64,000 nt of DNA from Tubiluchus corallicola (lineage: Eukaryota > Animalia > Priapulida). The stretch is from contig JAQGDQ010000057.1 in assembly GCA_030141605.1 (NCBI GenBank), forward strand, positions 496,001 to 560,000, in the 5' to 3' direction. The stretch's first letter is position 1. Each line of letters starts with the position of its first letter. A model generated the notes under the pieces. That model saw only the letters and a program-made list of their open reading frames with translations. It made no database searches and was not told the origin of the DNA. Positions 6,801 to 29,742 of the stretch are shown piece by piece. Both the position numbers and the translations under genes were made by a program.

Positions 6801-7002
6801 AGGCTTGCCGTGATTGACAGAAAACCAGGTGCACGCCACTGTTATCGGCTGCATGGACACTATCACTTTCCCAGTTTCTCAGCAATTAAAATCGCCTGCT
6901 ATAAACATGATGAAATCACCTCTTTCCATTTCTCAGATGCTTGTATCGTGGATTTAGTAATTGGTGCATTTTTTTGCCAGATTAGGCTTCTCATGATGGT
7001 GC

Positions 7003-8683
7003 GTGGTAAGTTTGGTACTAGTAAGTTTGGTACTGGTAATTTTGGTACAAGGAAATTTTGGTACCGGGAACATTTGGTACTAGGAATTTCTAGTACGCGG
7101 AAATTTTGGTACTGGGAAAATTTGGTACAGAAAAAATGTGACACTGGTAAATATGGTACTAACGAAGTTTTGACAGGCATGCCGCATTTTTGGTACAAGT
7201 AAATATAGCATAAGGTAAAAATAGTACGGAACAAGTTTAGTATTGGGAAAGTTTGGTACTAGGAAAGTTTTAGTTCTACGATAATATATTTTATGTAGCC
7301 TATATCCTCGAACCACTTATAGGGGCTCATATTGTTGCATTTGTTTTTTATTAATTTTGTTTTTGTTTGCGTCCTCTTTATTTGTTTTTGTTATTTGCCA
7401 TTGTTGTTGTTGTTGTTGATGATGATGTTGTTGCTTGTCTGTTTCTTACTTGATCTTTTTTGTGATTACTACTACCACCAACACCACCACCATCATCATC
7501 ATTATTGATGTCATCATGTCACCATTGTTACTGTTGTCGTTTTCTTGCTGTTGTTATTGTAGATGTTGTCGTCGTTGCTGAGGTTGTTGTTATTCTTGTT
7601 GTATGTTAGTTTCTTGCTTGCTGTTTTTGTTGACCTCATCATCATCATTGTTGTCATTGTTACATTTGTCGTTTTGTTGCTATTACTGTTGTTATTGTTG
7701 TTGTTTTTGCTGTTGCTGCTGACAACAGTGATGACAGTGACAAGTACGACCATGATGATGACACGCCCATCTCTGCCACTGTCACCACTACCAAGAGCAA
7801 CATCATGACAACATTACGCCATCATCGTCAGCACTGCCGGCGTGAAAAAGAACAATTCTCACTCCATTCTGTGGCCTTCTATGCTTATGCAGGACATTTT
7901 TTTCAGTGATCGGTCATCATTGCCACGTTCTTATATTAGATTAATAATGTTTGTATAAAAACACAGAGAAAACGATTGTTTTACTCGAAAAAAACAAATT
8001 AACTGAGCTTTTCGAAAATTTGCGTGTGAGTTGAGATCTTTCATTTTTTGCTGAAAGAATTCTTAAATGTACCTACATGGGTGGTATAATCACGGATAAA
8101 ATTTTAGCTATCATGCACTATTTATTCCAGTAGAAGATTTTATGAACTCTTTAATAAACTTTACTTTCCAATTACCAGATTTCCTCTTTACTGAATAAAC
8201 TTCTTTATTTCTAGTTGAAACAATAATACTGAGATATAGAAATGCTTTCCTTTTCGGAATCAAATTTTCCAGTACCAAACTTTCATATTATATATTTTCC
8301 CCCTACCATATTTTCCTAGTACCAATATTTCTTAGTACTAAACAATCCTGATATCACAATTTCTTCGTACCAGATATTCCCACACCACTTTTTCCTAGTA
8401 CCAATATTTCTTAGTACTAAACAATCCTGATACCATAATTTCTTTGTAACAGACATTCCTACACCACTTTTTCCTAGTATCAATATTTCTTAGTACTAAA
8501 CAATCCTGATACCGTAATTTCTTCGTACCAGACATTCCCATACCACTTTTTCCTAGTACCAAAAATTCCTTGTACCTAAAGATTGTAGTACCAAATTTAC
8601 CTATACGAAAATTTTAATGCATACCAAAAATTCCTAGTACCAAATTTTCCTAGTGCCAAAATTATCTGTACCAAACTTACCAC
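7003..8683. mobile_element. Foldback-like non-autonomous DNA element with long, internally repetitive inverted arms
   Basis: The left end GTGGTAAGTTTGGTAC (7003) is the exact reverse complement of GTACCAAACTTACCAC (8668-8683). The arms (about 7003-7290 and 8260-8683) are built of ~15-bp TTTGGTACTAGGAAA-like subunits in opposite orientation. The right arm has three 79-bp higher-order units (8311-8560). No TSD identified. Confidence 0.65.
7395..7830. repeat. Degenerate trinucleotide microsatellite (GTT/GAT/CAT)
   Basis: Runs of gttgttgtt, gatgatgat and catcatcat; these explain the spurious poly-L and poly-N ORFs in the ORF track. Confidence 0.85.
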
Positions 8684-9682
8684 CAAGCTTTCCCACATTC
8701 TCTGACGATATACAATTTTAGACGATATAGGCTTACAACTTTTTTATAGTGTTGAAATCATCTTATAATTGTATTGAATTGCTATGCCAAGACATTTGAT
8801 CTTAGTTGCGCACCTTTTAAGCTATGTTACAATATTCTTACAGACTAATATGCAAGTCATCTTCATAAGCTACAGAAATACCTGTTTTATCTAGTGCTTG
8901 TCAGATTTGTATTTTGTTTGTGTGTCACTGTGTATGATTTTTTTGCAATTCCTGCTTTAATTTGGACTAAAAGTTCATTGACTGGAATGTGTTTCTTTTG
9001 TTTGTAACAAATAAAATGATTTAATACTTGATTTAAATATTCCTTGGAGTCAATTCAACTAAAAATATAGCATTTAATATTACATGTAATTTTACTAACA
9101 AAACGAAATAAACTTTAATTTGTTTGCCAGCTGGCAAAAACGTTATCAAAAATTTGTTTTATTAATAATCATAATAATTTGTCACATTATTTGCGCCTTT
9201 ACATCAATAATCTAAATAATCATAATAATTTGTTTGCAGTAATTTTACGTTGACTCCAAAAGGTCAGCAGCCGGTCGTAGCAAGCACTAACAAACAACCC
9301 TAGAGCTGAAAAACCAAAGTGTAAAAAGAGAAACTGCGAAACACTTTTGTTACGTTTTTCGTTTTTGCGATTAGCGGCTATACTGGGGGCATCAAACGGC
9401 GCATTATTAAAAAATTTTGAGCAACGCATTGACTGTAATCATAATATTCTAAGTTCACCAATAATGTTGGCATACGCGCAATTTCAATAAGCCAAAATCA
9501 CTTTTGCATTTTTAATAAAAGAAGAATATCTCAATTAAAAGCAATTTGTAGTTTGAAAAAACTGAAAACATTTAATGAAAAGGGAAAAATTGTAACTTGT
9601 AAAAATCTGCCGCTAGGGCGACACTAACTACGCGAACTGCTGCGCAATAAGTTCCTTACTTTGTTTTTGTATACTTTGTGCA

Positions 9683-9923: not shown

Positions 9924-10094
9924 AAATCGCGGTGTTTGCATCGTTCTTTCAAACCTCGTTGTACGAGTGATTGCTAGAATTTTAGAAAACAGTCAGGTTT
10001 TTTGACATACGATTAGATTAGGTCGTATTGGGTTATTGGAACCGCGTTTTTTTAAAATTATAGAGTAAACTGCTGGAAATCTTGCTCTTGAGAA

Positions 10095-10179
10095 ATGGAC
10101 AGTGGTGATTTTCCTCCGGATGCTGCCCAAGGATTGGCTTGGGGATATTTCTTGGGATTTCACAACATAATTTTGCCAG
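10095..10179 (+). CDS. STING: Tandem STING exon 1 (start plus dimerisation helix of domain 1)
   Basis: [29 protein letters not shown]. The ATG has a strong Kozak context (GAAATGG) with an in-frame TGA at 10089-10091. Donor GTAAGT at 10180. Too short to appear in the ORF track. Confidence 0.88.
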
Positions 10180-13100
10180 GTAAGTGGCTCTGGAAGAGCG
10201 CCTGTTCGAAATGTAACTGAGCATTTATTGTAATTTTGTAAAGTTGCATGTCATGATGTTATTTTTTTAACTAGCACTCAGTAGAATGAGTTATTGGCGT
10301 TATGATCTGTAATTTATGTTGATACTAGTTTTTATATCATAGTATGTAGCGTATATGTCATTCTACTAGAGCATTTTGTTGTACTTTGTCAAACTTATAT
10401 TTTTGTATAAACTTCTGCTTTAGTTTTAACTTCGGCTCATGGTTGACTTGGTGACCATTAGGCATTAGTCTTTTCACCACCTTCTCCATTTCTGTGTTAA
10501 CTGTTATTTTGATTTTGTTGTTTTTTTGCAGTAAAAGAAATTAATAATAAAATATACATGTTCATTCAGTCTTAGAGCCCACAGGTCAGATGGCGAAAGG
10601 CCTGATGGAATGGCTTTAACTCCTTCGACTGAGGGTAGTTCACTTCTTTGGGATATCACTTGTATGGATACATTGGGCACCTTCAAATTTAGGTGGTTCG
10701 GCAGGTTATGCGGCTTAATTAGCTGAAAATAGAAAACGTAGTAAATACAACCAACATTGCATTTTGTGCAATTGCCATTGAAACCTCTGGCACCCTTGGT
10801 ACTGAAGGAAAGAAGTTTATTAAACACATTTGGCTAGCTTGTGCGATTAGAAAATGACAAATTGGAAAAGAAAGAATTAAAAAAGTGGATGGAAAATTGC
10901 TATGACGAAGAATCGAAAGCGGCAGTTACAGCCTGATTTTCAGTGAGTCAAATTTGAGGCCCTGCATGAGTCATGAAATGGACGGGGCTTCATGCTTTTT
11001 TTTAGGCTGGATCTGCTCTACAGTTTCTGGGCTGGGGCAAAATTTTTTGGTATGTGAGTAGGTGGGGTGTAGGGCTTGTGCTTGGCTAAATATGGGCCAT
11101 TTGTGTACAGGAAAATGTTCTGCTAGGAGACAAAAACTGAGGCCGTGGGGTCAGGGCAACAATGTCTTGTAGTGTATCAAATGAAAGGCCTCGATGAGGC
11201 GAACCGAAAGGTAAGAGTTGCACCCAAATTGGTTGACCCCTGACCCGCTAGGGAGAAAAGAATGAAATTGAAGAAACGTAGGCACCAATGCTTCAATGTC
11301 AAGCACCAGTAGCTTGTAATGTATCAAATGAAAGGTCTTGATAAAAGAAATTAAGGGGTATGAGTTACACCCAAATTGGGTGGCCCTGAACCCTTAAAAG
11401 GTGAAAACCAAAACTAGGGAGTCAGGGGGACGAATGCTTCAAATGTTAAGCAATCAGTAGGTTGTAGTGTATTATGAAAGGTCTTACGGAGACGAATTCA
11501 TTAGTGTACATTGACTCGCATATATGATTGACCCTTGATTCACGTAGAACTGATCAAAAAGTAACAAATGTTGTCATTGAAATTATTATTGTCAAGCACA
11601 ACTTTCTTACGTACATATTGTTAAAGGAAAACCGGACAAGTGATTAGACTCAGTCTCATTTTAATTTACTGTTCAAAATGTACATTTTGTTGCCTATAAA
11701 AGTTAGGAATTGTTTCTAACATTTGAATAATTACCTTGGAAAGTTAATTAACGGCAACCGAACACAGCTATCGCTTATGTCACAAACTAACCACAGTTTG
11801 TACAATGGTAGGCCGCTTCCATGTGTGTTAAGCACTTTTGCTTAAGCAAAGATTGCTATAAGATGCTGATGTGATGTCACAAAAATGAGCTCTACGCACA
11901 CAAATGCTGCAAGTCATGATCATGCTTACCACGGTACTGCGCCTAGTTGCCGACCACGCGAATGTGACAAAAAGACATCATTGCCAGTCATAGTGGATTT
12001 GCTGAGCCGCGCATAGCTTTGAAAACTTGTTTAACAAAATTTAACTATCCGTGGTAATTATTGTGGTAAAAATCTGTGGCAGTTTTCAATATTTTAGAGC
12101 ATACTTTATTTTGAACTAATGTCTACACAATTGCCCGGTTTTCCTTTAAATATTTTGGAAAAAAAATTTATGTCTAAATACGAAATGTTGCCAAACTTAT
12201 GTCACTTGAAGTATCTCATGTCACAGTTTTTGATTCACGGGTCACTAGTTATGAGTCAAAAAATATATACTAGCTATGATTTGTAACACACACACTTCTT
12301 TTAGGCTAAACTACTGTATTGTGGCCTTTTTTCATATGCTTGCAAAGTACCTAAAATTGATTTGGAAAGACCAAGGAAAATTGTATAAGGCTCTTTAGTA
12401 AAAATAATAATAATAATACTTGAAGAATTTCTCGTGCATGTAGTAAAATAAAATGTACTCTTTCAAGAAAAAATCGGTTTACTAATCAGAAGTCACTTGG
12501 AAGGAACCGGTATCGATATCTGACCAACTTCAACTCCAGCTTAAAACATTCAAGAGAATGAGCTTAAAATATAAACATGAATGCTGTACCTTAAACTACC
12601 TTTACTTTTAAAACTTTTAATATAGATTCTACCAGTACTAGTTAGTTAGTCGGGTTAAATAAAATATCTTAAAGTGAGGAATTAAGAGTCAGAAGTAGAT
12701 TTTGATGTGCTTTTATGTGGTTCCACATATTTTCATGGATGTAGCATAAATACACATAATTATAGAACAATACTGTTGTTCGTTCTAGTGTCTGTTCTGA
12801 CTTCTAAATCAGAACTGACACCTAAAAGACGCATATAGAACTTTCTTGTCACAATTATACAAACACACGCTATGTCATGTTAGTTTGTTCATTTACTGAT
12901 AAATTTCTGTGTCCTTGTTTTGTTAGTTTGGGCCCCTGGACTATGAGGCCTTGGGCTGAAACCCACTTAGCCTATGCGTTAATAAGACATGGCCCACATG
13001 TTAATAAAACACAGCCAGTAGCCTGCAGTCAAAATCATCTTTTGCTAAAAAATTAAATTCCCTTTTTTCTGTCTGGTTGCCTTTCAGAAGTCTGCTGAAA

Positions 13101-16100
13101 AGGTAAGACCTGAGCTCCCTATTCAGTAAGATTAATGGATGATAGGCCTATTTGGTTATATTACGTATCTAACATGTATCTTTCTATTAGGTTTTCAAGA
13201 TTTCGTTTCTTCATCAAAGGAATTTGGCAACAAAATAAAGTTCAAGAGGTTTTTTATGTTGATGCCAGAGGACTGTTACTGTCCAAAGAGTCTTGCTGGA
13301 GCCGACAGTCGGATAGAGCATGTGGGTAATCTGGATGATCGTCAGCTGAGTAGAGCAGGCAGTGTGAGCCGAAACTATGGCAAAAATTCAGTTTACAAGC
13401 TCACAAGACAAGGGGTATTAATTTAAACATACATAATGTTGAACTTGGAATTTTCTATTTTCTGTATACCATATAACCCCTCTGCGTGCATATAAAATTT
13501 GCTTTCTTTTTATTGTTCGTTGTACAGGGTAGTACAAGTATAGAGTCCCTCCCTCAGATTACAGAAAATCATGTCTTGAAGGCATACATGTACATTCCAC
13601 AGAGAATCATGAATGTTTCAGCATTGTAAAGAAAACTTCATAGATTTTTTGTTCAGACATTTTCCTTACAGGTGATGCTTTAGTCACCTGCATCAAAAGG
13701 CCACACTCATGGATATCTCGGCTTCAGCGGTCTAATGCATAACAATGTCCTTTACTGAGCCTGTCATTGCAGTAAATTTTTTTCAGCTACCAGTTCCACA
13801 GACTCTGTTTTTTTCTCTTAATCCATTTGTATCGCTTGTGTTAAAATAACTTGTGGATTACAAAATGTCAAAGTGTTGTACATGTTTCCATTTTTATTGT
13901 ACTTATGGCAAGTAAACAAGTTATGACAGAATCTACAAATATCAACGTTAATATAAACTACATTGTTAATCAGAATTAAAAGACTTATAAATATCATTAT
14001 GTGGCGTCAGTAGTTAGTCACTTAATGATTTTTTATACAGTGTATTGCAAAAATACTTAGTTTCAAATGTCCATGTTTCCATTTCATGTCTGTCTGGTAC
14101 AGTAATTCCAGTGCACAGTATGTGTGTTTCACATGATATGTGCTTGAGTTAGTGCTTGCTGTATGCTTGAGTATAAGCTTGTCGTTTTGCACGCTTGTGC
14201 GTTGTGGGTAGTATGGTTATGCAGAGGCTGTGTGTGCAGTGGATTACTGGGATTTGGGGTGTCACTTATTTAAAACAAATGTGTTTGTGTCACAAATATC
14301 ACTTCACTAGATTTAATTACTATAATATTCCATTTTGGAGGATTAATGTTGCCAGAGATTTTGCAGCATTTGCTGCGCCAACTCTGTAGGATAAAATATA
14401 TATTACAACATGTCAAACATATAGGTTTCAAGGCTGTTTGACATCTCTTCTATTAAAATGTTACTTATGCATTTTTTGGTTCGATTGTGAACTGCAATAG
14501 TTACAGTACATCCTGCAACAGGTTGCCACTCCACTCATATTTTTACGTCACATGTCACTGCTGAAAACTACTTTCTATTTTGCTTGAACTTTGTTCTATT
14601 ATTCTATCTTTGTTTTTCTCTATTTTTTATTATAAATTCTTTCTCTTGATAGTTTCTTAGCCTTTCCACTTTTCATAGTGGTTTTTAAGCTCTGCCGTTT
14701 AACCACTGTGCAGCATAAATTTCTGGTTGATAAGAGTAGTTTAATCAACAATAGGTTGATTTCTGGTTGATCAAGAACCGTTTCATTACATATGGTTTAT
14801 TTAATTAACAAATATAAATTTAGACTCATTTTAATTTATTTTGTTCATGTGTCTTGTAACAGTGTAATAGTGTTGTCGCTGTATATTCTATGCGTATTCT
14901 TTTGAAAAAAATTATATTTTGTAATTTTATGCTGTGCGTTCTGTAACTCAACCTTTTAGTTGTAGTGATAAATAAACTTACATATTTACCAGATAAGTTA
15001 TTATGTACTTTAGTGACTGTATTATTGCAGTTCTGTTACAATTATTGTATTTTTTTCTAATGTAGCACATAATAGTTCTGCAACAATAACAGTAATTGTA
15101 ATGTAAAATTATGTAATGCTGAATTACCGTATATACTTATGTACAAGTCGATGTGCATTTTAAGACCAAAAATTGCATTATTTTATATATTACCTGTGTA
15201 CAAGTCGACTTTAAAATATTAAGATCTTCCAGAGTAAATGATGTCAACAATGGCCGAGTAATAAATCAATAGCCTACTGTGTTAGTGTGCAAGATACATT
15301 CAAGTGCCTGGGCCGAGTATATTATACCTACCTGATGTATATATTCATGTTGAGGGCATTACTAAAATAAATTACAGTAATATTTGTTAATTTGGTGAAG
15401 TATTGTCAAGATGCGAACATTCTCTGATATGAGGTATCACAGTATGAGTGTTTGTTCAGTCCAGCATATAATGAAGGATTATTTCTTTGCATATTCGTAT
15501 TATAGACGACTCTTTAGCGACATCTCTCAAAAACATATCTTAAATATAAGTTGACCCCAAAAATTTCACCTTAAAATCGCCTCCCAAAAATTCGACTTGT
15601 ACATAAGTATGTACGCTAAATTAAGAAATAACCACACAAGAGAGTCATCCAGCATTGGCAACAGGTTTTCGAGTTGTTTTGCTGCTGTTTTGCACTTGAT
15701 TATTTGAAGTACGTGTATGTCTAAGACCCGTGTCACACAGAGAAAGCCATAATCCGTAAGCCATAAGGCGCATGTTGTAATCCGAATGTCCAAAATGTCA
15801 AAAACTGGATGCAGTTGCATTATGGTTTATAATACAGCATGTTAAAAAACAAAAGCACAAACGGACAAAACTAACTACGTAGGTTAGACCCATTTATAGC
15901 AACAGGCAAAGTGAAGAAGAATTTGCGACATTATTTCAAACAAACAAGTCACAACGAAAAAATTTTAACTACGTTAGAATATCTGTCATATCATGTTATT
16001 GGATTAACAGACTGTCAGTTGCATACACTGTATAATATGATTGACTGGTATCCTGCCTCCTGCACGTAGTGTACATTTCTTATGTGCGCTGTAGAATACG

Positions 16101-19100
16101 ACAGTCATAAATAAGTATTATGGGTTGAAAATGCTTTTTAATGTTTATAGTACATCAGCGTTATAAATTCGTAATTTTGTAAAAGAATTATACACCATAG
16201 GAACCACAAATATGCAAATTATCCCGTTAACGAAGGCGAAAAGGCCAAATTCATTTCGCAATAAGGCGCATTATGAAAAGCTCAAAATTCCTTATAAGAA
16301 ATGTACTGCAGATTATGGTTGACAGCTTACAGTAGGCAAACCACGTTTGGCGTAAGACGGCAAATGGATTATCTGTGTGACAGGGACCATCTGTTAGCAT
16401 GTATTCACTTTTCATGAGGAGTCTTTTTCTCCTTACGGATTATGTCCAGCTCTGTGTGACATAGGCCTAATGTTGTTCTTGATGCTATCATTTACAAAAG
16501 CAATTACAATAATTACAAAAAGGCACGAAATAAATTTAATAGCTACAACAGGAAACTCAAAAATAAATATTATATTAATAAATGCAATGATGCAACTACA
16601 CCTAAGCAAAAATGGCGTTTAATTAATGACGTACTTAACAGATACAGAAACGATCAATTACAAATAAATAGTTTACGAGAAAATGACAGTATAATATCTG
16701 ATCCAGTTGACATTGCTAACAAATTAAATTCCACATTTATCAATCTCGGAAAATTTGACAACTTGCCACACCAACATAATGCAAATATACACAATATATA
16801 CAAAAACCAATCAGTAATACAATCCACTTTCTCATTTACTAACGTCACAGAATACGACATCTTTAGAATATTAAACAGTTTAAATATAAATAAAGGAAGT
16901 GGACCCTCAGACATGCCAATAAAGATCTTAAAAGACTGTGCCAGCATCATTACTCCTCATCTAACATATATCACAAACCAAGTCTTAATGCGCTCAGAAT
17001 TTCCAGCAGTGTGTAAACAAGCAAACATAACTCCAATACACAAGAAAGATGCTAAAGATGATGCTAAAAACTACAGACCAATCTCAGTAGTGCACGTACT
17101 AGCCAAAGTATTTGAAAGAGTTATCTACAACCAAATAAACCATTACATTGAAAATAATAAGTTACTGTCAAATCATCAATTTGGTTTTAGAAAACTACAT
17201 TCTACAATAGAGGCGATAATTGATGCCACTGAAAAGTGGCGTTACAACTTAAATAAAAATAAATATATAACAGCAGCATTTTTAGATCTAAGTAAAGCTT
17301 TTGACAGCCTCGATCACAATTTACTACTAGACAACTTACGCCAACTAGGATTCGATTATACTTCTCTCAAACTAATTAATAATTACCTACACAATAGAAA
17401 ACAAAGAGTCAAACTGAACAAACACACTTTTTCAACATGGGACACACCACAGAGAGGCATCCCACAAGGTACGATATTAGGTCCATTACTCTTTTGTTTA
17501 TACGTTAATAAAATTCATTTAGTTTTACATAATTCAGACTTAACACAATATGCCGATGATACAACACTCTATACAGCACACTCAGACTTTCTAACATCAA
17601 AAAATAATCTAGAAAAAGACATAACAAATATAAATGCAGCATTTAACTATTTTGGTTTAAAAATGAATGATGATAAGACAGAATTTATGGTAATATCACC
17701 CAAATCTAATGACATTACTTCTAATGCAACACTAAAAGTAGGTGACTGTTCCATAGAACAAGCAAAAACTGTAAAATTTTTAGGCATTACTGTCGACAAT
17801 AAACTCACTTGGGATGAACAGTTTCATCAAATACACAACAAGATGGCATTAAGCACGACATTCTTACGCCAAACCAGAGGCCATCTAACCAAGAAAACAA
17901 AAATTCTCATCTACAAAAGTCTAATATTACCACATTATCTATATGGTTGCACTTTACTTCAAAACGTCAAACATGAAAACTTTAGAAAACTAAATACAAT
18001 GCAAAACTACGCACTTAGATTAATTCATGGCTACTCTAACAAAACTGCTAAACAACATGCTGCTTCTGCAACAAGCTTAAGAACGTCCACAAAAATACCA
18101 ATATTAGAAGCCTATCGAGATTACAAAACACTGATATTTCTTTATAAATATATAAATAAACTGAGCATTCCATTTATAAACAATCCCTTAGCATTTATTC
18201 CTGATACCACATTGAACACTAGAACATACAATTTAAAGCAAATTACAGTAAACAATAAATTTGGAAATAACTCTATATCAAAACAGGCCATACATTTATG
18301 GAACTTACTACCCAGTGAAATAAAACAAATAGAATCTCTCCACCACTTTAAAAAGAAATTAAAAGAATATCAATATAACAGGTTTCAACTTCCACCTTGT
18401 GCATCTGATACTAATTACACAGACTCCACTTTCATATACCCCCGCCCCTGACTCCATATAATGATTAAAAATGAAATTTTTTAAAAAAATTATGTAATGT
18501 AATACGTGTTATGTTAGTTTCGTGTTTCGTAATGTTAAATGTATAAATAGTGTGCACTATGTAATGTAAAATTTAATGTACTTTCCTGTAATTGTTTGTA
18601 AAAATATTTTAATATGGTATTTATAAATATGTTCATTATATTGTATATAGTTTGCACTTTAGTTTTTTTTAGTATGCACTGGACGCATTTGTCTTGAACA
18701 GTGTTGTTATTTTAACATTACGCTGAGGCTAACTCAATTTTATTATAATGAGGGAACCGTTTTTATGACAAATAAAGAATTAATATATAATATATATATA
18801 TATAGGTTGATACTTACTTTGTGGCAGAATTCTCCACCCCTTTATTGACCATGTACGAAATGTCACAAAGTGATGACATCACCATCTCAAAAGAGGACCT
18901 TCACAAGCAGATGGTGGAGTTTGTCAGGACAGTACGCTATCTTCTCTCTTCCAACACTGCGTTTGCCCATCAGTATGAAATAGTCACTGTGAAGGATTTG
19001 AGCAGTGTGTCTGATTTGGTTGCTGAACGTATCGCTTCAGGTGGAGAGGAACCAACAGTGCCGGATCCTCAAGCTGTCCCTATTCATGTTGGTGCTGGTT

Positions 19101-22100
19101 TGGCATGGTCTTACTATCTTGGATTCTTAAAAATCATATTACCAGGTGAGTTTAATAGAATTAAATTATAACAAAAAAGAATATAGTTTATTAAATTTGG
19201 CACTATTAACTTGTATTCATTTTTGTTTGAAAACTTTCAGGATTAACAATACTTGAACCTCTTTTCTAGTTATTATTTATTAGCCAAGTTAATGTCATTT
19301 TCAGATTTTGATAAGTTTGTGTCATCATCCCCAGACTTTGGTACAAAAATCCACATCAAGCGATTGATTATATTACTGCCAGAGGATTGTAACTGTCCCG
19401 GGAATTTGACAGAGGCTGATCCCAATGTACAACATGCCGGCTTTTTGGGAGACAGAAAGATTGATAGATCGGGAAATATTAACCGAAACTATGGAAGGAA
19501 TTCCGTTTACAAAATAACGGATCAGGGTGAGGTAAGTGGGTTAACCAACAATAACAAAACATGAATGAAAAATGGTCACATAATTATAACAACATTGCAA
19601 CCACTAATAACAATGTTTATCATCAACTAAAACAAACCATATCAAAAACATCAATATCAACAATATTTGTTAAAGTAATAAAACTAACATCTGCAATGTT
19701 AGTATTATAGGACTACAGGGTAGATCTAGAACTTTAAGCTCTAAGAAATGTCTCTAAAGAATATTAAAGAATCCCTTTAAAAATCAGGCCTGTGGTAAAC
19801 AGTGATTGACATCCTGTGTATGTATATCTTTACCCAAGATCACTTGTAAGTTGTACGGCAGATACGATGGCAACACAGTCTATTGGACAACTTTTGCACC
19901 TGGTGGCTCAAACTTGATTATAAGTTTTCGTTAGAATTGCCATGATATAGTATATAGTTTTTGCTCTATTGTTTTATTTCAAGTTTAAAATTCAAATTGT
20001 GAGTTAGATATTTTAAACATAATTATTTAAGCAATATTATTCTGTAGTCTTCTGACCATATAATGTTTCAGTAATCATAACTGTCTAGTCACTGTCATAT
20101 AAACATAAAAAGAAATCTCATTCATAAAGAGCAAACAAACAAGTGACATACATATGCATGAAGATATGGCATTGACTGCAATGCTGTGATTTTCTTAAGA
20201 AAACATAGCTGTCTTTCTGACAGTAAGAAGTCTTCATTAAAAATATTGAAACTGATATTTTGGACTTGATTTTCGATTTCGTTAAAAATTTTCAAAATAA
20301 CAGTGTACTATATACATCCACCAAAAAATTTAAAAATTCAATTATAAGATTCTGAATTTACTTTTGGTATTACTGTATACTGCCTGTAATGTGTATAGCA
20401 CATGTACACTGTAATTAATTTTGTAGAACATATACATTTTTTTGCAAAAATTTTAATTGTACCTTTTGGTTTCCATTTATGTATTCTTTGAAAATTTTCT
20501 TTATTTGTTGTAAAAATTAAATGATAGCATTGTAGTTGTGGTGGACACGCTTTGTCTCATGGCAACCAATATTGCTAAGCTAAACCCCAGTCCGCCACTG
20601 TTTTAGACAACGTGATTGATAATATCAAAATGCAGAAAGCCTCAAAATTTATAAGCAAAATTATAATAACAGCTTTTCAAAGCAATGTTTCTATCTCTGT
20701 AATGGAAGCATTGTGTAAAATATACATGTGCATCATTCATGCTTAGGAGTAATGCAGTCTAAGTGTTTAAAGTGCATCAATGCGTATGTCATTCGGTTTG
20801 TCTTCAATCTACCTTTGCAGACATTGTATGCAGAATGTCAAAATAAAATAAAAGGGTGCCGTCTGGAACAGGATAGATTTTAAAAAGTGCTGATAAGTTA
20901 CAACTGTCGCTGTGTGTATGGGCCAGTCTCATGAAATTTGACAAAACAAATGTGCAAAAACTTGAAAATTCACACTTTGCAAACCTATCTTCAACCTTTA
21001 TGATATTGCATTTTGATTGTCTGGGTGCCTGTTCACCAAATACAGCATAGACTGCATTATAGCGGAGATATAGGTTAGTTAATTTTTAATCAGTCCTCAT
21101 GATGTCTACACGGGGCGCATGTACAACCATTTGTTGGACATACGGTTTTGGTATGTGGACGTAAGTCCGTGCTGGTGGACATTATAAATGGGCAATTCCA
21201 TGAGTGTCATGGAGTGACATTTGATTTGAAATTAATTTAATATTGTCTGTAACGTTTGTTGTACAACATTGTGCAACAGTACCAGATAGCCTGACTAAAT
21301 CAAAAACGACAATAAGTAGAACAATTCCTTGTGTTTTGCATTTTTATGCAAGACTATTATCTAATATAGGTAAAATGCTATTGTCTTACACTAATTTGTT
21401 AAAACTGGTGTGATAAAACTGAGACGCAATCAACGGTGATGAAACATTTGTCATGAAATGATACATTTAGTTTATAAATGAAGTCACTAATTAATACTGT
21501 AAGTGGAAACCCTCGTTGGGAGCTTGTTTAATTTGGGCTATTTAAAACATTTATATATTTCTAGCTAGACTGAAAACTTTATTAGACAGTTATTTAATTA
21601 ATAAGCAACTTCTAATCTGCTTAACTAGTATGCTCATACTACAGAGGTTTCGGCCTGAGTATTAATAGGTGCCATTTTGTTTATTTTAAACTAGAAACAT
21701 GCACACTATTATTATAAACTTTTTTGAAAACAATGTTATTAGTGCATAAGTTTCTTAGTATTTATTCATGTCTGCGGTTAGTGTTTACATGTATATTTTT
21801 ACAACCAATGTTTCTCCTTAACAGGGACAGATGTCCATGAACCAGGACAACTTTTGTGTGTTCCGGTCCTGGACGTCCTGGTTATGGACATTTTTAGATA
21901 AATACTTAATTTGCTACAGTACCTTTAAAACAAGCAATTCCTATTAATTACTAAATTAGCTAGTCTTAACTACTTGTAAACATCACGTAAACTATGATGC
22001 TAATGGTACTGTTTTCTAATTATGCATGTCTCGGTAATAGACACCTAATAGATGTACTCAAAAAAATATGCTAAATGTCCTATTGCCCCGCAAAAAGAAA

Positions 22101-25100
22101 TAACTAAAGGCGGTTGCCAAAGTTCTGTCACAAAATTAGATGTGACCATGGATATTCTTATTACTACACAATCCCTAGATAGACTACGCCTATTTAAACA
22201 ACTAATAGTGGATGTGCGCAACACTCCGCCATTTTACAGTGGTATAACTCGTGCTTTATTCCTATACTGTAATAGATTATGTGCATTAGTGTACTTCAGG
22301 AATCTGAGAAATTTCATTTCTGAGAAAGGAGGAGATAGCATAAAAAATTTGGAAGCACCTGAAAATTTTGGGAGGTTTTTACTGGTAGGGGTGAACATTT
22401 TGTACCAGAAAACGAATTCGAATCGAATCAAATTTGTGACTTTCGAATTCGAATCAAACCGGATTTCGAATTCGAGTCAAATTTGAAGTTACTTTGAAAG
22501 ATTTTCGAACCTTCAGTAAAAAGCGGTGTTACAAAGATCATGCATTAGGTCCTATTACTCGATTTTGTTCTGCAATAAAACCACTAATAATGAGTGTAAA
22601 AAATGCACACAGAAAACTCTACTAAATTGTGCTAATTGCGTGATGTTAAAAACATTTTAATAACAAAAGAACCTATCTGGTTGAAGTGCTGAATTATCTG
22701 AATCTATAGTTTTAGGTTCGAATCAAATTTGCATTAAAAAACACATTCGAGTCGAATTCGAACGTTCGATCCTCATCCCTATTTACTGGTTATTGACAGT
22801 GGTAGGTATTAACCTACATAATAATACCATGTAAAATGCTCACATACTAGACTTTCACTCTTAAACTAAATTCTGTAGTAAAAAATGAACAAACTGCATA
22901 GATCTGTCAAACGTGGACGTGTAACCAAGTAAAATAATACAGACACTTTCACATAATCCTCATACCAGGAAACAAAGTTATGGCTATAATTTATTGCACT
23001 TTACTGATGAAAGGTATTGTCAGAGTCCTTAGATGAAGCACAATTTTATTTGTACACTTGACAGTACAACAGTATATGACCATTTTGCAAAATAATACCA
23101 AATACTAAATGAAAGAAGCAAGAAGAATGCATATAGTCACGTTGTAATCATGGTGAGGTAATCCCACTGTAACATGGCAGCACAAGTTTTTGTCAGCAGT
23201 AGTGCAACAGCTCATCTAGAGATTATGTAGTGATATTATTATCTATGAGTGTGACTGTCAGCACAGATTTAGATGTGATCTCAGAGAGAGACTGCTAGTC
23301 GTGTGCAAAAAAGTAACAAAACAATGGGCACCATGTTGCTGAGTAAGCTGCTACTTTCTGCTACTTCTTTATTATACATGCATGCGAAGTTTTTGCAATT
23401 GTATTTTCATTACGTATGTAGTGAATTTGCATGCAAATAGTAAAATAGTTAAAAGTGCCAGCCTCCAGTGTTATCTATAAATGTTCAAATTGGGCAAAAA
23501 AAGCATCAGCAAGGTCGTTTTGCATTTAACAGCATCCTACATTTTCATTTAAGTAAAACAATATTATAGTATTTTTGTCGATGGTCTTTTATTTGTAAAA
23601 TGCTTTCAAAATATTCAAGAAACTGCAGGGCCGGCTCTACCACTAGACAAACTAGGCAGTTGCTTAGGGTGCCAAATTTTGGGGGAGTGCCAAATTCTAG
23701 AAAAAATTAAGCTTCCATAAATAATGATGTAGAAGAAATGCATAAGTATTTAGGTGTACAACACTAATTAAATGAAACGAATTGTATTATTTTCATGCCT
23801 GCATGATTCATCCACGATAATATGGAACGGTCTACCTGCAACAAACACTTTCTACTTTCGCTTTACTAGGTTTATATAGATTTACACCAATAATACTACT
23901 GACTACATTGCACTACTTTTGCTCATACTTTCTACTGTGTGCAACTATGCTTTGAGTAGCTGAGCAGTTTCTTGCAATAACATTTATCTAAACTTATAAG
24001 GAATTGAAGCCTTCAGCCTTCAAGGATTAATGCAGTAAACTAAAGGAAAAGGCTGGTGGACATTCAAGTAGTTGAACAGTAAAAAGATCCGCTGATGAAG
24101 TGTTTGCAACCAGACCAGAATTATGGTTGTGAAGATTATAAAAATAACGAAATGAAAATGCGAGAAAAAGAGGAATTATGGATTCAGAAGCTGTAGCCTC
24201 GAATCTTATGTATAACATACCATCGAAATTAATATATAGACTAGCAAAGGCCCTGCAAAAAAATTTGCGTATAAATTCACTTATAATCAATAATATGCAA
24301 ACATCCTACATAATCCTCATTTATAACGCAAAGGCAGTAGCAGCTTTTGCTGAATTAAAGTTATAAGCAGAGTATAATGGATGACATCAGAACAATGGCT
24401 TTGCGTCAGCAGTTTTCCAAGCGAAGATCGCCCGAAATGGAACCTCCAATCAAATCGTCACAGCTCCTCGGTGTGGAGACGTCCTGAAATATAGCCCACA
24501 CCATCGTGTAGCCCTGTTCCTCCTCTTTCTAAAGAGCTATGTATCTCCATTCGAGAGTCCCACCAGGCATCACTAGAACGTTAGTCCTGCAGGCTGTTTG
24601 GTCAAACTTTCGGAAAAAAATCGGAAGTTGGGTCCGGGAAAACGTCCGTTAAGGGACGCCGTGGCCCTCTCGCGACTTCTAAGTACGCCTACTACACCCA
24701 CCGTTCAACGAGCTATCTATCCATGGCATGCACCGCTCCCTGCCCATATCCTTTCTCCAGAAATAAGAGGTATACGTTTTGCAAAAAACGGCCGAAAATG
24801 GCCATTTTGGAGGTTTTTTGCCCCCGTTCCTCCCGTTGGGCCCGATTCGAAAATAAACCATCAATGGCACGACACTAGATCGAGACCTTTTGTTTGATAT
24901 ATAGATCGTCGCAAATGGTGCCGCCGTTGGAGCTGTAGCCTCCAATCTTATATATATATAATATTTGTATTAATATATATATATATATATATATATATTA
25001 AGCCCATGCCAGCAAAATTAATATGTGCGATATATACAACAAAAATTCAATTTTAAGGATGGGGGCAGTAGAGAAGCCAGATTTACCAATAGGCTGACTA

Positions 25101-28100
25101 GGCTGCAGTTTAGAGAGCTGTGGCAGCTCGTAGCTAAAATTAGTGGGGGGTGCTGCAAAATTAAATATTTTTAGCTATTGTTTTGATACTGAGTAAAACG
25201 AAACAAACATATGTAATTTCAATGTTGTAATCGTAATTTTAAACAAACAAATTTATATATATACAAACTTGATAAACTCCTAAACAAAAAACATTGTTAC
25301 CTTACGATTAGCCTAAATTGTCGCTGTTCAAGAATATGCCGATAAATGGCTTTTAAACACGTGGCAACTGACAACGCATGCTGTGTGAGCGACATACTCT
25401 TCCTACCTAAAGTGCACTGTCTTATCTCAGACATGTGTGCATGGCCGCCAAACACCGCATTGCACTTTGCTGTGAAGGAAATTGTACTTCCCTCACGTGC
25501 TCCAGTTCCGCACAAGTATAAAGAAAGAACTAAAGAAAAAAGACATAATAGTGAATATTATCGTCAATAATGAGTGAAAACAGAGGGTGCCACGGTACCT
25601 ATACACGAGCCGCCACTGTTAGAGAGGCAAATTTTGAGGGAAGCTAGAATTGAGGGGCTCAGTATTACAAATTCTTATTCTCCTTGGGAAATGCTTATGC
25701 TTTCATATTCTTATGAAGCACATATTTTATAACACACCTCAAGGAGTTGTTAAACCACATTTCATATAAGAGCCCATATAACAATATATGTTGTAATTTA
25801 TTGGCCAACAGTAATATGAAAACACTACAAATTGCAGCATAAATATAACATTTTTTAATATAATATAATATAACAGTGAAACGCCATTGAAAATACATGT
25901 TGACAAGTTCCTAACAGCTGCTGTTGCCCAACAACATGGCACCTTTAAGCGTGACTCTTTCGAACAAGTTTTCGAACCTTCAGTAAAAAGCAGTGTTACA
26001 AAGATCATGCATTAGGTCCTATTACTCGATTTTGTTCTGCAATAAAACCACTAATAATTAGTTTAAAAAATGCACACAGAAAACTAAATTGCTAAATTGT
26101 GCTAATTGCGTGATGTTTAAAACATTTTAATGACAAAAGAACCTATCTGGTTGAAGTGCTGAATTATCTGAATCTATAGTTTTAGGTTCGAATCAAATTT
26201 GCATTAAAAAAACTCATCCAAGTCGAATTCGAACGTTCGATCCTCATCCCTATTTACTGGTTATTGACAGTGGCAGGTATTAACCTACATAATAATATCA
26301 TGTAAAATGCTCACATACTAGACTTTCACTCTTAAACTAAATTCTGTAGTAAAAAATGAACAAACTGCATAGATCTGTCAAACGTGGACGCGTAACCAAG
26401 TAAAATAATCCAGACACTTTCACATAATACTCATACCAGGAAACAAAGTTATGGCTATAATTTATTGCACTTTACTGATGAAAGGTATTGTCAGAGTCCT
26501 TAGATGAAGCACAATTTTATTTGTACACTTGACAGTACAACAGTATATGACCATTTTGCAAAATACTACCAAATACTAAATGAAAGAAGCAAGAAGAATG
26601 CATATAGTCACGTTGTAATCATGGTGAGGTAATCCCACTGTAACATGGCAGCACAAGTTTTTGTCAGCAGTAGCGCAACAGCTCATCTAGAGATTATGTA
26701 GTGATATTATTATCTATGAGTGTGACTGTCAGCACAGATTTAGATGTGATCTCAGAGAGAGTGTGCAAAAAAGTAACAAAACAATGGTGGGCACCATGTT
26801 GCTGAGCAAGCTGCTACTTTTGAATAGTGAATTTGCATGCAAATAGTAAAATACCGTATATACTCGCATATAAGCCGAATTTAGAACTATAAAATACAAT
26901 ACTGAAATCAGGGGGTCGGCTTATATGCGCATGAAACAAAATGAACACAAGGACAGACACTAATGCCAATTTTCCAGCCACACATTTTCATCGCTATCTG
27001 ACTCTTTATTTGGTTGTGTGTCACCAGTGGTGTATTGGAGGGGGATCGTGGGGAATCGCCGTCCACCCACTTTTTTTTAAGAAAAAATTCACATTTCAAT
27101 AAATGTCTGCTTTTTGTATTCATTAGATAAAAAATATTAAAAATGTATACGGGTTTGTAATGTAAAGTCAGACGATGAGGGTGGTAGTTGATGGTCGGCT
27201 TATATACGGGTTTTTGCAAAAACTGGCCATTTTAAAGCAGTTTTAGGGGGTCGGCTTATATGCGATGTAGGCTTATATGCGAGTATATACGGTAGTTAAA
27301 AGTGCCAGCCTCCAGTGTTATCCAGGTAATATTATAGCACTAGCCAACCCCATAAAAAAGTTTGTGCATAAACTCACAACAACACAACCACCACCACCCC
27401 ACTCACAACACACGACCCGCACCACACCACAACACCACACTGTAGCACACCACCTACACCACACCACACCACCACATTATCCACACCACATCACCCGCAA
27501 CACACCATTAATACCATACCACATCACCCAGATCAAACGTCACCACACCACTCCAACACCACACCCACACAACCTCCCCGCCATCCCCTACCACACCATC
27601 CACAGCACACTCACCACACCCACCACATCACATGGTGATGATGATGTTGATGACTATGATGCTGATGATAACAACAGTGATGACACCTACAACACCATCA
27701 CCAGTAGCACAAGATAACAACAAAACCATTCAAAACATTTTGCACAAAGTCAAACTGTGTGCTATAATAAATGCTATTAGTCTGTCTACCAATGATCAAC
27801 AATGCACAGACATTCTACATAGTTTTTTATTGTTCCTCAGATGATGATGGGCTAACAGAACTTAATTACATGTAAAATCCATAACACGGTCAAACGGCGG
27901 GTGAGAACAATGCCTGGAACAGCTGCAAAATTGATCAAACTTAAAGACAATGGATTTTCCAAATATCATGCAGCACAGGAGGGTTGTAAAAGAACTTTGA
28001 AACACACGTTTCCCGTTTCGTCTAGTTGACATCTCTCCTAGTAAAAACCTTCAGCATTTTGTAGACCATTCCGTCTTCTTTCTGCGGGTGCACTGATTTT

Positions 28101-29742
28101 ATTTCCCAGCATGCCCAAACAGTTGCACAAATTGAGTTCTTCTAGAGGCTGTTTGAGCAGTTTTCTGCAAAATTTGCGTGGTTGTGTCCGGGAAAACATC
28201 CGTCGCGGACGCCATGGCCCCCTCGCAAATTCTAAATATGCCTACTACACCCACTGCTGAATGGGCTATCTACCCATAGTAAGCACCCGGTGGGCCCGAT
28301 TCGAAAAATAAAGTCCCAATGAGACCACACTAGATCGAGACCTTTCGTTTGATATATATAGATCGCCGCAAATGGTGCCGCCGTCGAACTTTCGAAATAT
28401 TGTTCTATACGTAAGCAAGCAGTCCCTCTATACACTTTAACTAAATCTGTGGACTGTCAGCCATATCCTGGTGCATTCTGGGGTTGATTTTCAGATGCCT
28501 CTAGTAGCAACAAAAGTTTTAATTAAATTCCCAGTTGTGGACAATTTTTTTAGACATTAGTACATTTGTTGGTGGTTTTATTAAGAGCTGCCGACTTGGA
28601 AAAGCTTATGAATGTCAGCTATGCCCTAAATATGGGCTAATTACCACAAACACAAAAAATCTCGAAAGTTTAATACTTTTTGTGTTAGAAGATCATTTTG
28701 ACAAGTTGGTGAAGCAATAGACCGTCCCGGACATGAAAATCTCAAGCAATTTCTGCTTTCAAGTCCAACTAATGTGAACATACTGCACTTGTAATTTCTC
28801 AAATATGTTTGTTCTGGCAACAGACAACACAAACCAAAAATGGTGTAAGTTGATGGTGAAAACTAGATAAAATTACCAAAGGCACCATTTTGTAACATTT
28901 TGCAAGAATGGCCCATATAACAATTGCTAAAGTCTGCCTAACAGATTTAGTAGAGCAAGTTTCTGTTTGTCAATTTACAACCTATAATAATCTGAGAAAC
29001 AGTGGCAAAATACTGCTGAAGTTGAACACGTTATGTGGAACAGTCATTAAATTTATGCAAGAAACTTTTCCCTTAGGTGTCAACATTACTCAAAATCAAA
29101 TGATTAAATAAAATTCTCACTAGAAACTGAACTTGGACATAATGGGCAATGTCCATTATTCACCTGATTAACAATTTGTGAATGTAATCTATTCACATTG
29201 TACTTAGAGTAAAATATTTTAGCATAATAATCCAAATAGTTGCCTAAATATTAGCAGTTTTGCCAAGCAGTTAATTATAATACTTTAAAGTTACTTTACT
29301 AATATGTAATATGTAAATTTTATTACATTCCCAATGATTTTAATTTTATCTAACTCATCATTTTATATGTAGCCATTGCTGCTCATGTTTTTGATTTTAC
29401 AAGTTTGAAATGCTAGTTTTTGGCCTTTACCTGTAAATGTTTAATATGTAATAGTGTTGCTTCAGTTTCTAAAAAATTAGAACATTTTTTGCTAATTTTT
29501 AGGACAAGTATTTTGTGGCTGAGTGCCCTGCAGTACTGCTGACTATGTATGAGATGTTGCATCACAATAAGAATGTAACCTTCACCCAAGAAAATCTTGC
29601 ACAGGAACTGGAGCAGTTTCTCGCAACTTTGAAATGGCTTCTTGGTAAGAATGGAGACTGCAAGAACCAGTATGAGGTCATTCCTGTGAAGAAAATAAAT
29701 ACAATTTCTGGATTAATTGCAGTTGCTTTTTCTGGGGGTTAA
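10095..29742 (+). CDS. STING: Tandem STING protein: two cyclic-dinucleotide-binding (TMEM173/STING C-terminal) domains, no TM segment, no C-terminal tail; 5 exons, 371 aa
   Basis: Exons 10095-10179, 13191-13414, 18806-19145, 19305-19531 and 29503-29742 join in phase (85+224+340+227+240=1116 nt) with no internal stop. Repeat 1: [18 protein letters not shown]...[10 protein letters not shown]...[16 protein letters not shown]...[14 protein letters not shown]. Repeat 2: [18 protein letters not shown]...[10 protein letters not shown]...[16 protein letters not shown]...[14 protein letters not shown]. Both match STING AHGLAWSYYIGYLRLILP / ILLPLDC / DRAGIKDRVYSNSIY / LEYATPLQTL. The symbol denotes the family, not proven orthology. 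Confidence 0.9.
10570..10830 (+). mobile_element. CRE-like non-LTR retrotransposon fragment (restriction-like endonuclease remnant) in STING intron 1
   Basis: Plus strand reads [14 protein letters not shown]...[11 protein letters not shown] and [20 protein letters not shown], matching the RPDG...WDxTCxDT...AIETxG pattern of CRE-clade RLE domains. Confidence 0.65.
10920..11560. repeat. Interspersed repeat with recurring TATCAAATGAAAGG / TTGACCCCTGACCC blocks, copy A (possibly Helitron/HINE-like)
   Basis: Internally repeated ~120-bp blocks, with clear similarity to 29960-30690. The family assignment is tentative. Confidence 0.55.
11625..12145. mobile_element. Kolobok-like MITE with TTAA target site duplication
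   Basis: TTAA|AGGAAAACCGGACAA ... TTGCCCGGTTTTCCT|TTAA: 15-bp TIR with one mismatch (extendable imperfectly to ~25 bp), purine-purine terminus, TTAA on both sides. Confidence 0.75.
13191..13414 (+). CDS. STING: Tandem STING exon 2 (domain 1 core and lid)
   Basis: Acceptor ctaacatgtatctttctattag; reads [11 protein letters not shown]...PEDCYCP...[22 protein letters not shown]; donor GTATTA at 13415. Confidence 0.88.
15127..15616. mobile_element. Tc1/mariner-pogo-type MITE, TA TSD
   Basis: TA|CCGTATATACTTATGTACAAGTCG ... CGACTTGTACATAAGTATGTACGC|TA, an imperfect 24-bp TIR. Confidence 0.75.
16493..18803 (+). mobile_element. 5'-truncated CR1/L2-group (Crack/Daphne-like) LINE with an intact RT frame, 3' UTR and (TA)n tail, in STING intron 2
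   Basis: The frame is stop-free from about 16493 to 18451 (ORF track 16763-18451). It contains [46 protein letters not shown] and [13 protein letters not shown]. There is no APE domain, so it is 5'-truncated. AT-rich 3' UTR, AATAAA at 18771-18776, then (TA)n to 18803. Confidence 0.9.
18806..19145 (+). CDS. STING: Tandem STING exon 3 (end of domain 1, linker, start of domain 2)
   Basis: One uninterrupted frame, [19 protein letters not shown]...[42 protein letters not shown], physically links the two domains. Donor GTGAGT at 19146. Confidence 0.92.
19305..19531 (+). CDS. STING: Tandem STING exon 4 (domain 2 core and lid)
   Basis: Acceptor ttaatgtcattttcag; reads [11 protein letters not shown]...LPEDCNCP...[23 protein letters not shown]; donor GTAAGT at 19532. 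Paralogous to exon 2. Confidence 0.92.
22386..22781. mobile_element. hAT-type MITE with 8-bp TSD
   Basis: TTTACTGG|TAGGGGTGA ... TCATCCCTA|TTTACTGG, with subterminal TTCGAAT(C) repeats. Confidence 0.85.
22502..23475 (+). repeat. Local ~1-kb duplication, copy 1 (STING intron 4)
   Basis: Near-identical to 25969-26853 plus 27293-27322. Confidence 0.9.
24160..24960. repeat. Interspersed repeat (possibly Helitron/HINE-like) with a partial second copy at 28140-28400
   Basis: Shares the blocks GGGCCCGATTCGAAAA and CACTAGATCGAGACCTTT..TTTGATATA..CGCAAATGGTGCCGCCG with 28140-28400. AGCTGTAGCCTCNAATCTTAT occurs near both ends, followed by (TA)n. Confidence 0.55.
25118..25618. mobile_element. hAT-type MITE with 8-bp TSD, nested in another element fragment
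   Basis: TTAGAGAG|CTGTGGCAGCTCGT ... ACGAGCCGCCACTG|TTAGAGAG; 14-bp TIR with 2 mismatches. Confidence 0.8.
25969..27322 (+). repeat. Local ~1-kb duplication, copy 2, interrupted by a MITE
   Basis: Matches 22502-23475 except for the 26854-27292 insertion and small indels. Confidence 0.9.
26854..27292. mobile_element. Tc1/mariner-pogo-type MITE, TA TSD
   Basis: TA|CCGTATATACTCGCATATAAGCC ... GGCTTATATGCGAGTATATACGG|TA, a perfect 23-bp TIR. The empty site (aaaata|gttaaaag) is visible in copy 1 at about 23445. Confidence 0.9.
27375..27720. repeat. Low-complexity CAC/CCA- and GAT-rich tract
   Basis: Degenerate (CACAC)n then (GAT)n; explains the His/Thr/Pro-rich ORF. Confidence 0.8.
29503..29742 (+). 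CDS. STING: Tandem STING exon 5 (end of domain 2, stop)
   Basis: Acceptor gctaatttttag; reads [18 protein letters not shown]...[10 protein letters not shown]...[24 protein letters not shown]. Paralogous to the first part of exon 3. Confidence 0.88.
   Translation, partial: DKYFVAECPAVLLTMYEMLHHNKNVTFTQENLAQELEQFLATLKWLLGKNGDCKNQYEVIPVKKINTISGLIAVAFSGG

Follow-up and report, generated by a model that had tools for sequence, protein, structure and literature searches.

A single-chain tandem STING with two unlike half-sites, a putative asymmetric receptor for cyclic dinucleotides

The window (the whole 64-kb stretch of DNA analysed here, animal-type genomic with a GC content of ~34%) contains a five-exon gene on the + strand, at 10095-29742, which encodes 371 amino acids with two STING ligand-binding domains and a linker of 17 residues between them. 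From a structural model and the residue differences, we read the protein as a single-chain pseudo-dimer whose pocket is lopsided and would accept a 2'3'-linked ligand, likeliest 2'3'-cGAMP, in one orientation; we regard this reading as having about an even chance of being right. It is a real and apparently undescribed STING variant, and the fusion would by analogy parallel that of CARF into SAVED. The coding exons are 10095-10179, 13191-13414, 18806-19145, 19305-19531 and 29503-29742, and the features referred to below are these:

10093..10179, + strand, exon 1, stem helix of repeat 1 (ATG at 10095, codon of G162 at 10143-10145)
13191..13414, + strand, exon 2, core strands and lid of repeat 1 (Pfam E 9.8e-12)
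18806..19145, + strand, exon 3, the fusion exon, with the C-terminal half of repeat 1, the linker and the stem helix of repeat 2 in a single open frame
18827..18841, + strand, E260-F-S-T263-P264 (EFSTP) of repeat 1, from alignment
19034..19084, + strand, 17-residue linker between the repeats, the gap between the PDB-matched stretches of exon 3
19109..19111, + strand, S162 of repeat 2, the sole S162 of the protein, from alignment
19305..19531, + strand, exon 4, core strands and lid (19466-19510) of repeat 2 (Pfam E 1.4e-12)
29503..29742, + strand, exon 5, C-terminal half of repeat 2 and the stop without a tail (Pfam E 3.5e-08)
29521..29535, + strand, E260-C-P262-A263-V264 (ECPAV) of repeat 2, from alignment

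All four introns have GT..AG ends, the phases match and the frame is open through 371 codons. A STING profile run over 2909 six-frame pieces of the window matches only the five exons of this gene. Pfam STING_LBD (PF15009) is matched by each of the five, four of them singly above the curated cut-off (27 bits); exon 1 alone matches profile positions 1-20 with an E of 0.0055, under the cut-off. Exon 3 gives two Pfam stretches (E 5.1e-18), and its PDB matches come in the order C-terminal half, then N-terminal helix. The fusion is not an artefact of the gene model, because exon 3 carries parts of both domains in one frame. An artefact joining two neighbouring genes was rejected on this ground, and is also countered by the same junction in three other proteins. 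One RNA-type contig (run X2), which aligns from 10093 on, joins exons 1, 2 and 3 and skips the intron with GT..AG ends; a second covers exon 4 at 19323-19532. Run X2 is RNA by guess, and with exons ~8-10% different from the window it may derive from another strain or species. The splice between exons 4 and 5 we infer from the AG/GT ends, the phase and the orthologues P0002 and P0003.

The neighbours are a fumarylacetoacetate hydrolase-family gene upstream (Pfam, about 757-4825, + strand) and a Med14 gene downstream on the other strand (about 39400-46050, - strand). No immune gene cluster is seen among the neighbours in the window, and no cGLR gene was found within its 64 kb. Intron 2 contains an open frame of 663 codons (16460-18451, + strand) with a reverse transcriptase domain (RVT_1, E 1.5e-36), likely a LINE-type element, which by contig depth has many copies. 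Tandem-repeat-like stretches lie at 55132-55638, about 7000-7280 and 8270-8690.

A profile made from 40 transmembrane N-termini has no match below E 0.1 in the 2909 six-frame pieces of the window, and the highest hydropathy over 19 residues is 1.33. The orthologues P0001 and P0002 have a Met start immediately before the stem helix. Thus no N-terminal transmembrane domain of the canonical STING kind was found, although 207 letters of the RNA-type contig 5' of 10093, which are without placement, leave a small chance of an N-terminal extension. For TIR domains, the window was scanned with a profile from 43 other N-termini, without a match below E 2, and P0002 has no TIR match; the room for one before the second STING domain is just the 17-residue linker. 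A C-terminal tail, which is a feature of vertebrate STING (PMC4117786), is also absent, the stop codon (29740-29742) following right after the last helix. Relevant passages of PMC4117786 note three arthropod STINGs without a transmembrane domain and no tandem one.

Human numbering was counted on the full-length chain 6nt5_A, aligned to the vertebrate-type protein P0016, and transferred by alignment. With this numbering, the nine residues that the preliminary description had listed as shared (Y163, G166, F167, R232, R238, Y240, N242, E260 and T267) are indeed present in repeat 1 and in repeat 2, and the lid of repeat 1 with R232, R238, Y240 and N242 lies at 13352-13396. The difference between the repeats at 162 and 263-264 is likewise borne out by alignment: repeat 1 has G162 and T263-P264, while repeat 2 has S162 and P262-A263-V264. 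The positions given earlier for EFSTP (18827-18841) and ECPAV (29521-29535) are correct. The span 18806..29560 that had been assigned to the asymmetry includes these motifs, but G162 and the lid of repeat 1 fall outside it, in exons 1 and 2. The pocket set Y167, R232, R238, Y240, N242, E260 and T263 is complete in repeat 1 (with F at 167), whereas repeat 2 has Ala263. The repeats, which are 48% identical, further differ at 164 (F/Y), at 261-262 (F-S vs C-P), at 154-157 and at 235 (S/N), a lid position that is a listed ligand contact and differs in a fixed way. N162 and S263, the published specificity switches, are absent from both repeats. R232 is kept in both, and the substitutions, S to G and T to A, are losses of hydroxyls with no added contacts. 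Repeat 1 also has a His at 168 (10161-10163), a position that is Leu in 98% of single STINGs and in every relative; this is either an allele or an assembly error.

Orthologues are few. Searching with exon 3 gave three related proteins among 384 candidates, namely P0001 (95% identity, 303 aa), P0002 (58%, 373 aa, full length) and P0003 (54%, 229 aa, partial). They represent two independent lineages only, repeat 1 of P0001 being 94% identical to that of the window, while P0002 and P0003 share 79% identity. The sole addition from a full-length search was an oyster TIR-STING. HMMER against 1.84 billion representatives gave no further member above 50% among the best 150 of 345 matches, a search for shorter relatives by alignment gave none from 160 candidates of 30-124 residues, and the ESM Atlas search returned no usable match. 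P0002 has the same architecture and the same pattern of G162/T263-P264 in one repeat and S162/P262-A263-V264 in the other; P0003 shows it for repeat 2, and P0001 for repeat 1 together with S162 of repeat 2. Across relatives at 54-95% identity, the pattern is thus kept wherever the site is covered. Other pocket sites of P0002 differ (N267, D165, F161 and F159 in repeat 1, D260 and Y167 in repeat 2), so that 167, 260 and 267 vary between the two lineages. P0001 reads at its C-terminus into intron 4 (window 19532-19564) and lacks the last exon; it represents either a transcript in which the intron was left unspliced or a short isoform. This intron has poly(A)-like hexamers 146 and 232 bases from its start.

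The alignment of orthologues, a check set beforehand, shows no random variation at 162, 263 and 264 in the available relatives. There are 168 columns filled in all rows, 86 of which differ between the repeats of the window, and 17 of these 86 differences are fixed across the six repeat sequences. Each of the three positions named in advance (162, 263 and 264) belongs to this fixed set, with a hypergeometric P of 0.007 when every differing column counts as background. A fairer control takes the conserved columns alone, and here the three sites give P ~0.12 and are not exceptional. In family-conserved columns 11 of 21 differences are fixed, in variable columns 6 of 65, a contrast which does show, at the level of the alignment, that each half keeps to a state of its own. 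Fixed differences are also concentrated on listed pocket contacts, a list drawn from literature passages (4/5 vs 13/81 elsewhere, Fisher P 0.005).

The structural model is of P0002 and not of the window protein, and the arrangement of its domains is read from the pTM. AlphaFold2, given an alignment of 25 rows (P0002 and 24 others, nearly all tandem proteins), predicts one rigid unit with pLDDT 90.2 and pTM 0.90, on which five models agree; AlphaFold2 was trained on many STING homodimers, and the high pTM is partly likeness to solved structures. With an alignment of three rows the model is poor (pLDDT 56, pTM 0.44). The confident model fits the built-in receptor of the preliminary description and suggests that the two domains are fixed relative to each other, which would most simply be in the V shape of STING, made inside one chain. 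Both lids are modelled as ordered strands, and the linker as coil with block pLDDT 67-86. The model of repeat 1 (P0002 residues 13-185) matches 8efn_A (VIA Z 23.5, rmsd 1.4 A, 172 aligned) and human 4ksy (Z 22.1, rmsd 1.8 A, 173 aligned), both of them closed, ligand-bound STING. Foldseek places the P0002 model close to coral STING chains (TM 0.86-0.90), with the alpha/beta fold and the beta-strand lid, and no PDB chain among the matches listed covers both halves (query TM <=0.43). Against PF15009, P0002 scores 232 bits in two stretches.

In a tree of 178 rows (3 of 181 segments, shorter than 120 residues, were dropped) the two repeats are sisters (SH-like 99) and each forms its own clade (98 and 98). 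An IQ-TREE analysis of a 48-row subset agrees, with SH-aLRT values of 94, 98 and 97. The claim that both halves look selected gains support, as they retain 30 and 31 of 50 consensus columns, and this equal retention excludes that one half is decaying. By tree and consensus, then, the duplication is lineage-specific and neither half is in decay. An origin from the (TIR-STING)2 proteins through loss of TIR was rejected on tree placement and on a p-AU of 0.027 against a shared origin of the P262 halves, a value from the 48-row quick tree and for a group picked by motif after the first tree.

For comparison, 153 proteins were surveyed (152 fetched and the window model), 26 of them with two or more STING domains. 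Solved metazoan STINGs (PF15009; human 4KSY, Sp-STING1 8EFM, Sp-STING3 8EFN, anemone 5CFQ) have the same fold, with Z 22-23.5 for repeat 1, and are ~30% identical to the tandem protein, which shares their stacking aromatics, lid arginines, G166 and acid 260. They are homodimers, whereas the tandem protein has two unlike halves in one chain, no transmembrane domain or tail, and, in both repeats, an insertion of one residue after Y240. Among 123 single-domain STINGs complete at the sites, some of which may be fragments of tandem proteins, 14 have G162, 12 have A263 and 12 have P262 without P264; neither half's state is, in this sample, unique to the tandem family. The lungfish STING-like protein P0101 has P262-A263-I264, of the repeat 2 type, within the vertebrate clade. 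All six core pocket residues are found in both halves only in the window family and in brachiopod P0009 (26 multi-domain entries, some incomplete).

Two STING domains in a chain are also found in the (TIR-STING)2 proteins of molluscs and brachiopods (for example P0006 from Ylistrum, P0131 from Mytilus and P0009 from Lingula), and an oyster class with two copies each of STING and TIR is on record (PMC11103948). The 16 repeat pairs of the main clade are related to one another and amount to a single event; among them, the first half has S162 in 14 of 14 readable cases and P262 without P264 in 16/16, and the second half has G or A at 162 in 13/16 and P264 in 13 of 15 readable. Unlike the tandem protein, the second half has N166 (16/16) and never R232 (0/16), TIR domains are present, ~245 residues lie between the marked positions, and the order of the halves is reversed. 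The first half has H163, G166 and P262 without P264, and the halves are strongly asymmetric in P0006, P0017, P0026, P0032, P0036, P0056, P0061, P0068, P0084, P0105, P0107, P0112, P0120, P0131 and P0132. P0006, from a scallop, has four STING domains. No published description of this asymmetry was found in the open-licence literature.

Closer in layout are the direct tandems of Capitella teleta (ELT98160.1), Ornithodoros turicata (XP_064457177.1) and a metagenome (P0126), unstudied records of 387-400 aa with two PF15009 stretches, no hydrophobic segment and a spacing similar to that of the window protein (78-98 residues separate position 271 from the next 158; in the window family it is 79-82). 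They stand apart on the tree and each has at least one half in which core pocket residues are missing. These direct tandems (P0059, P0010 and P0126), which lack a transmembrane domain, are independent of the window family, with the placement of P0059 and P0126 unsure on their long branches. Judged by these sequences, tandem STING domains arose several times. Outside STING, the nearest likeness is SAVED (two fused CARF domains, in Cap4 of CBASS), where a symmetric homodimeric receptor was fused and asymmetric ligands became possible (PMC8204762, PMC8793285). SAVED has an unrelated fold, is bacterial and effector-coupled and has been shown experimentally, so the likeness is one of analogy. A likening of repeat 2 to a D-x-P-T motif of bacterial STING was set aside, only the Asp being confirmed in passages of PMC8748872. 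In the open-licence literature, supplements aside, no account was found of a tandem STING without a transmembrane domain or of asymmetric half-sites; the supplements of papers on cGLR and STING evolution may list such architectures. Passages of PMC10732462, PMC12424679, PMC7288161, PMC8634458, PMC11173896, PMC12629869 and 10.1101/2022.12.18.520954 also belong to the literature basis.

The literature passages assign separate roles to the residues that differ. S162 touches the free 3'-OH of guanosine in 2'3'-cGAMP (PMC8410604; 10.1101/2023.02.22.529553), T263 contacts the guanine base (10.1101/2023.02.22.529553; PMC8410604; PMC4117786) and the 2'-5' bond is read by R232 (PMC8410604). The earlier statement that these residues contact bases and phosphates of cyclic dinucleotides needs correction for S162, whose partner is the guanosine ribose (PMC8410604; 10.1101/2023.02.22.529553). 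With Asn162 or Ser263, the STINGs of coral and fly change their specificity in favour of 3'3' or 3'2' ligands (10.1101/2023.02.22.529553; PMC8410604), and 2'3'-cGAMP is the commonest product of cGLRs (10.1101/2023.02.22.529553). After fusion, the two halves would split contacts that a homodimer carries twice: repeat 1 would keep T263-P264 for the guanine base and lose S162, and repeat 2 would keep the single S162 for the guanosine 3'-OH and lose T263, leaving a reduced pocket that would take a 2'3'-linked ligand in just one direction. That the kept S162 and T263 meet the same nucleotide is an assumption. A263 of repeat 2 may, by analogy, simply lower affinity; in human STING, T263A weakens or abolishes signalling (Table 2, PMC4117786). 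Lacking membrane, TIR and tail parts, the protein presumably cannot signal in the manner of canonical STING; it would most likely bind up the messenger as a soluble buffer or decoy, or else signal through a partner, which is the weakest step of the proposal.

It is conceivable that the chain is a pseudo-dimer whose differences are adjustments of packing between the halves with ligand preference unchanged, and of the competing explanations we find this the least unlikely. Many fixed differences lie at the start of the stem helix (154, 156, 157, 162, 164) and at the helix start at 261-264, and the F/C change at 261 is mirrored by a second fixed F/C change further on. In single-domain STINGs P262 and P264 exclude each other (P264 in 0/11 with P262 vs 90/111), which looks structural, and a small residue at 162 is weakly enriched with P262 (4/11 vs 13/111, P 0.047, kinship ignored). 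On the other hand, 162 and 263 are reported specificity positions in coral and fly STING (10.1101/2023.02.22.529553; PMC8410604), and lid position 235, a listed contact, is fixedly different as well. Somewhat more doubtful is the specialisation of the halves for a distinct cGLR messenger, a purine-pyrimidine or unusually linked cyclic dinucleotide. The preliminary description had proposed that fusion freed the halves to specialise, possibly for such a messenger; specialisation for a ligand remains plausible from the sequences, with the asymmetry kept, the halves equally conserved and the model rigid, but nothing points to a new messenger, only losses being seen, R232 kept and N162 and S263 absent. 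Because hydroxyls were lost and the 3'3'/3'2' switches are lacking, 2'3'-cGAMP in one orientation is likelier. The homodimeric STINGs of coral and human already bind 2'3'-cUA (PDB titles 8gjz, 8gjx), so fusion is not needed for this ligand, and the window yielded no cGLR.

Pairing of each repeat with its own kind in trans, giving chains with two different symmetric pockets, is improbable in our view. STING domains are normally homodimers, the variant motifs of each repeat do occur in single-domain STINGs, and in P0001, which ends before repeat 2 is complete, repeat 1 might be free; yet the linker appears long enough for a confident single-chain model, the spacing resembles that of the three unrelated direct tandems (79-82 vs 78-98 residues) and the covarying changes are placed in opposite halves. 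G162 and P262-x-V264 stand in opposite halves both in the window family and in (TIR-STING)2, as expected if unlike halves face each other. We give slightly less credence still to a scaffold or pseudo-receptor which resembles the closed STING dimer and binds no ligand. There is no effector domain, and the repeats keep 29-33 of 50 consensus columns against a median of 39 in single STINGs, but G166, an aromatic at 167, R232, R238, Y240, N242 and the acid at 260 are present in both halves of both full-length members, a full set that most other tandems lack. The pseudo-dimer with a pruned, one-way pocket remains the reading that we prefer. A wider proposal, which we rate no higher than the packing explanation, is that animals repeatedly fused the STING homodimer into receptors with complementary halves (small 162 with P264 vs S162 with P262-x-V264), much as CARF became SAVED, and that the window family, with both half-sites intact, picks out a cGLR messenger for which homodimeric STING is poorly discriminating, and signals or buffers without a membrane.

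The STING structures matched here are all of dimerising single domains, in which the share of each half is inseparable. A natural chain with one S162 and one T263 makes a half-by-half reading of an asymmetric messenger testable, and would offer a ready framework for cyclic dinucleotide sensors that are specific for orientation. A STING without membrane, TIR or tail implies a different job in invertebrate immunity, as buffer, decoy or in partner-dependent signalling, and the fact that complementary halves recur in tandem families of independent origin points to a possible general rule.
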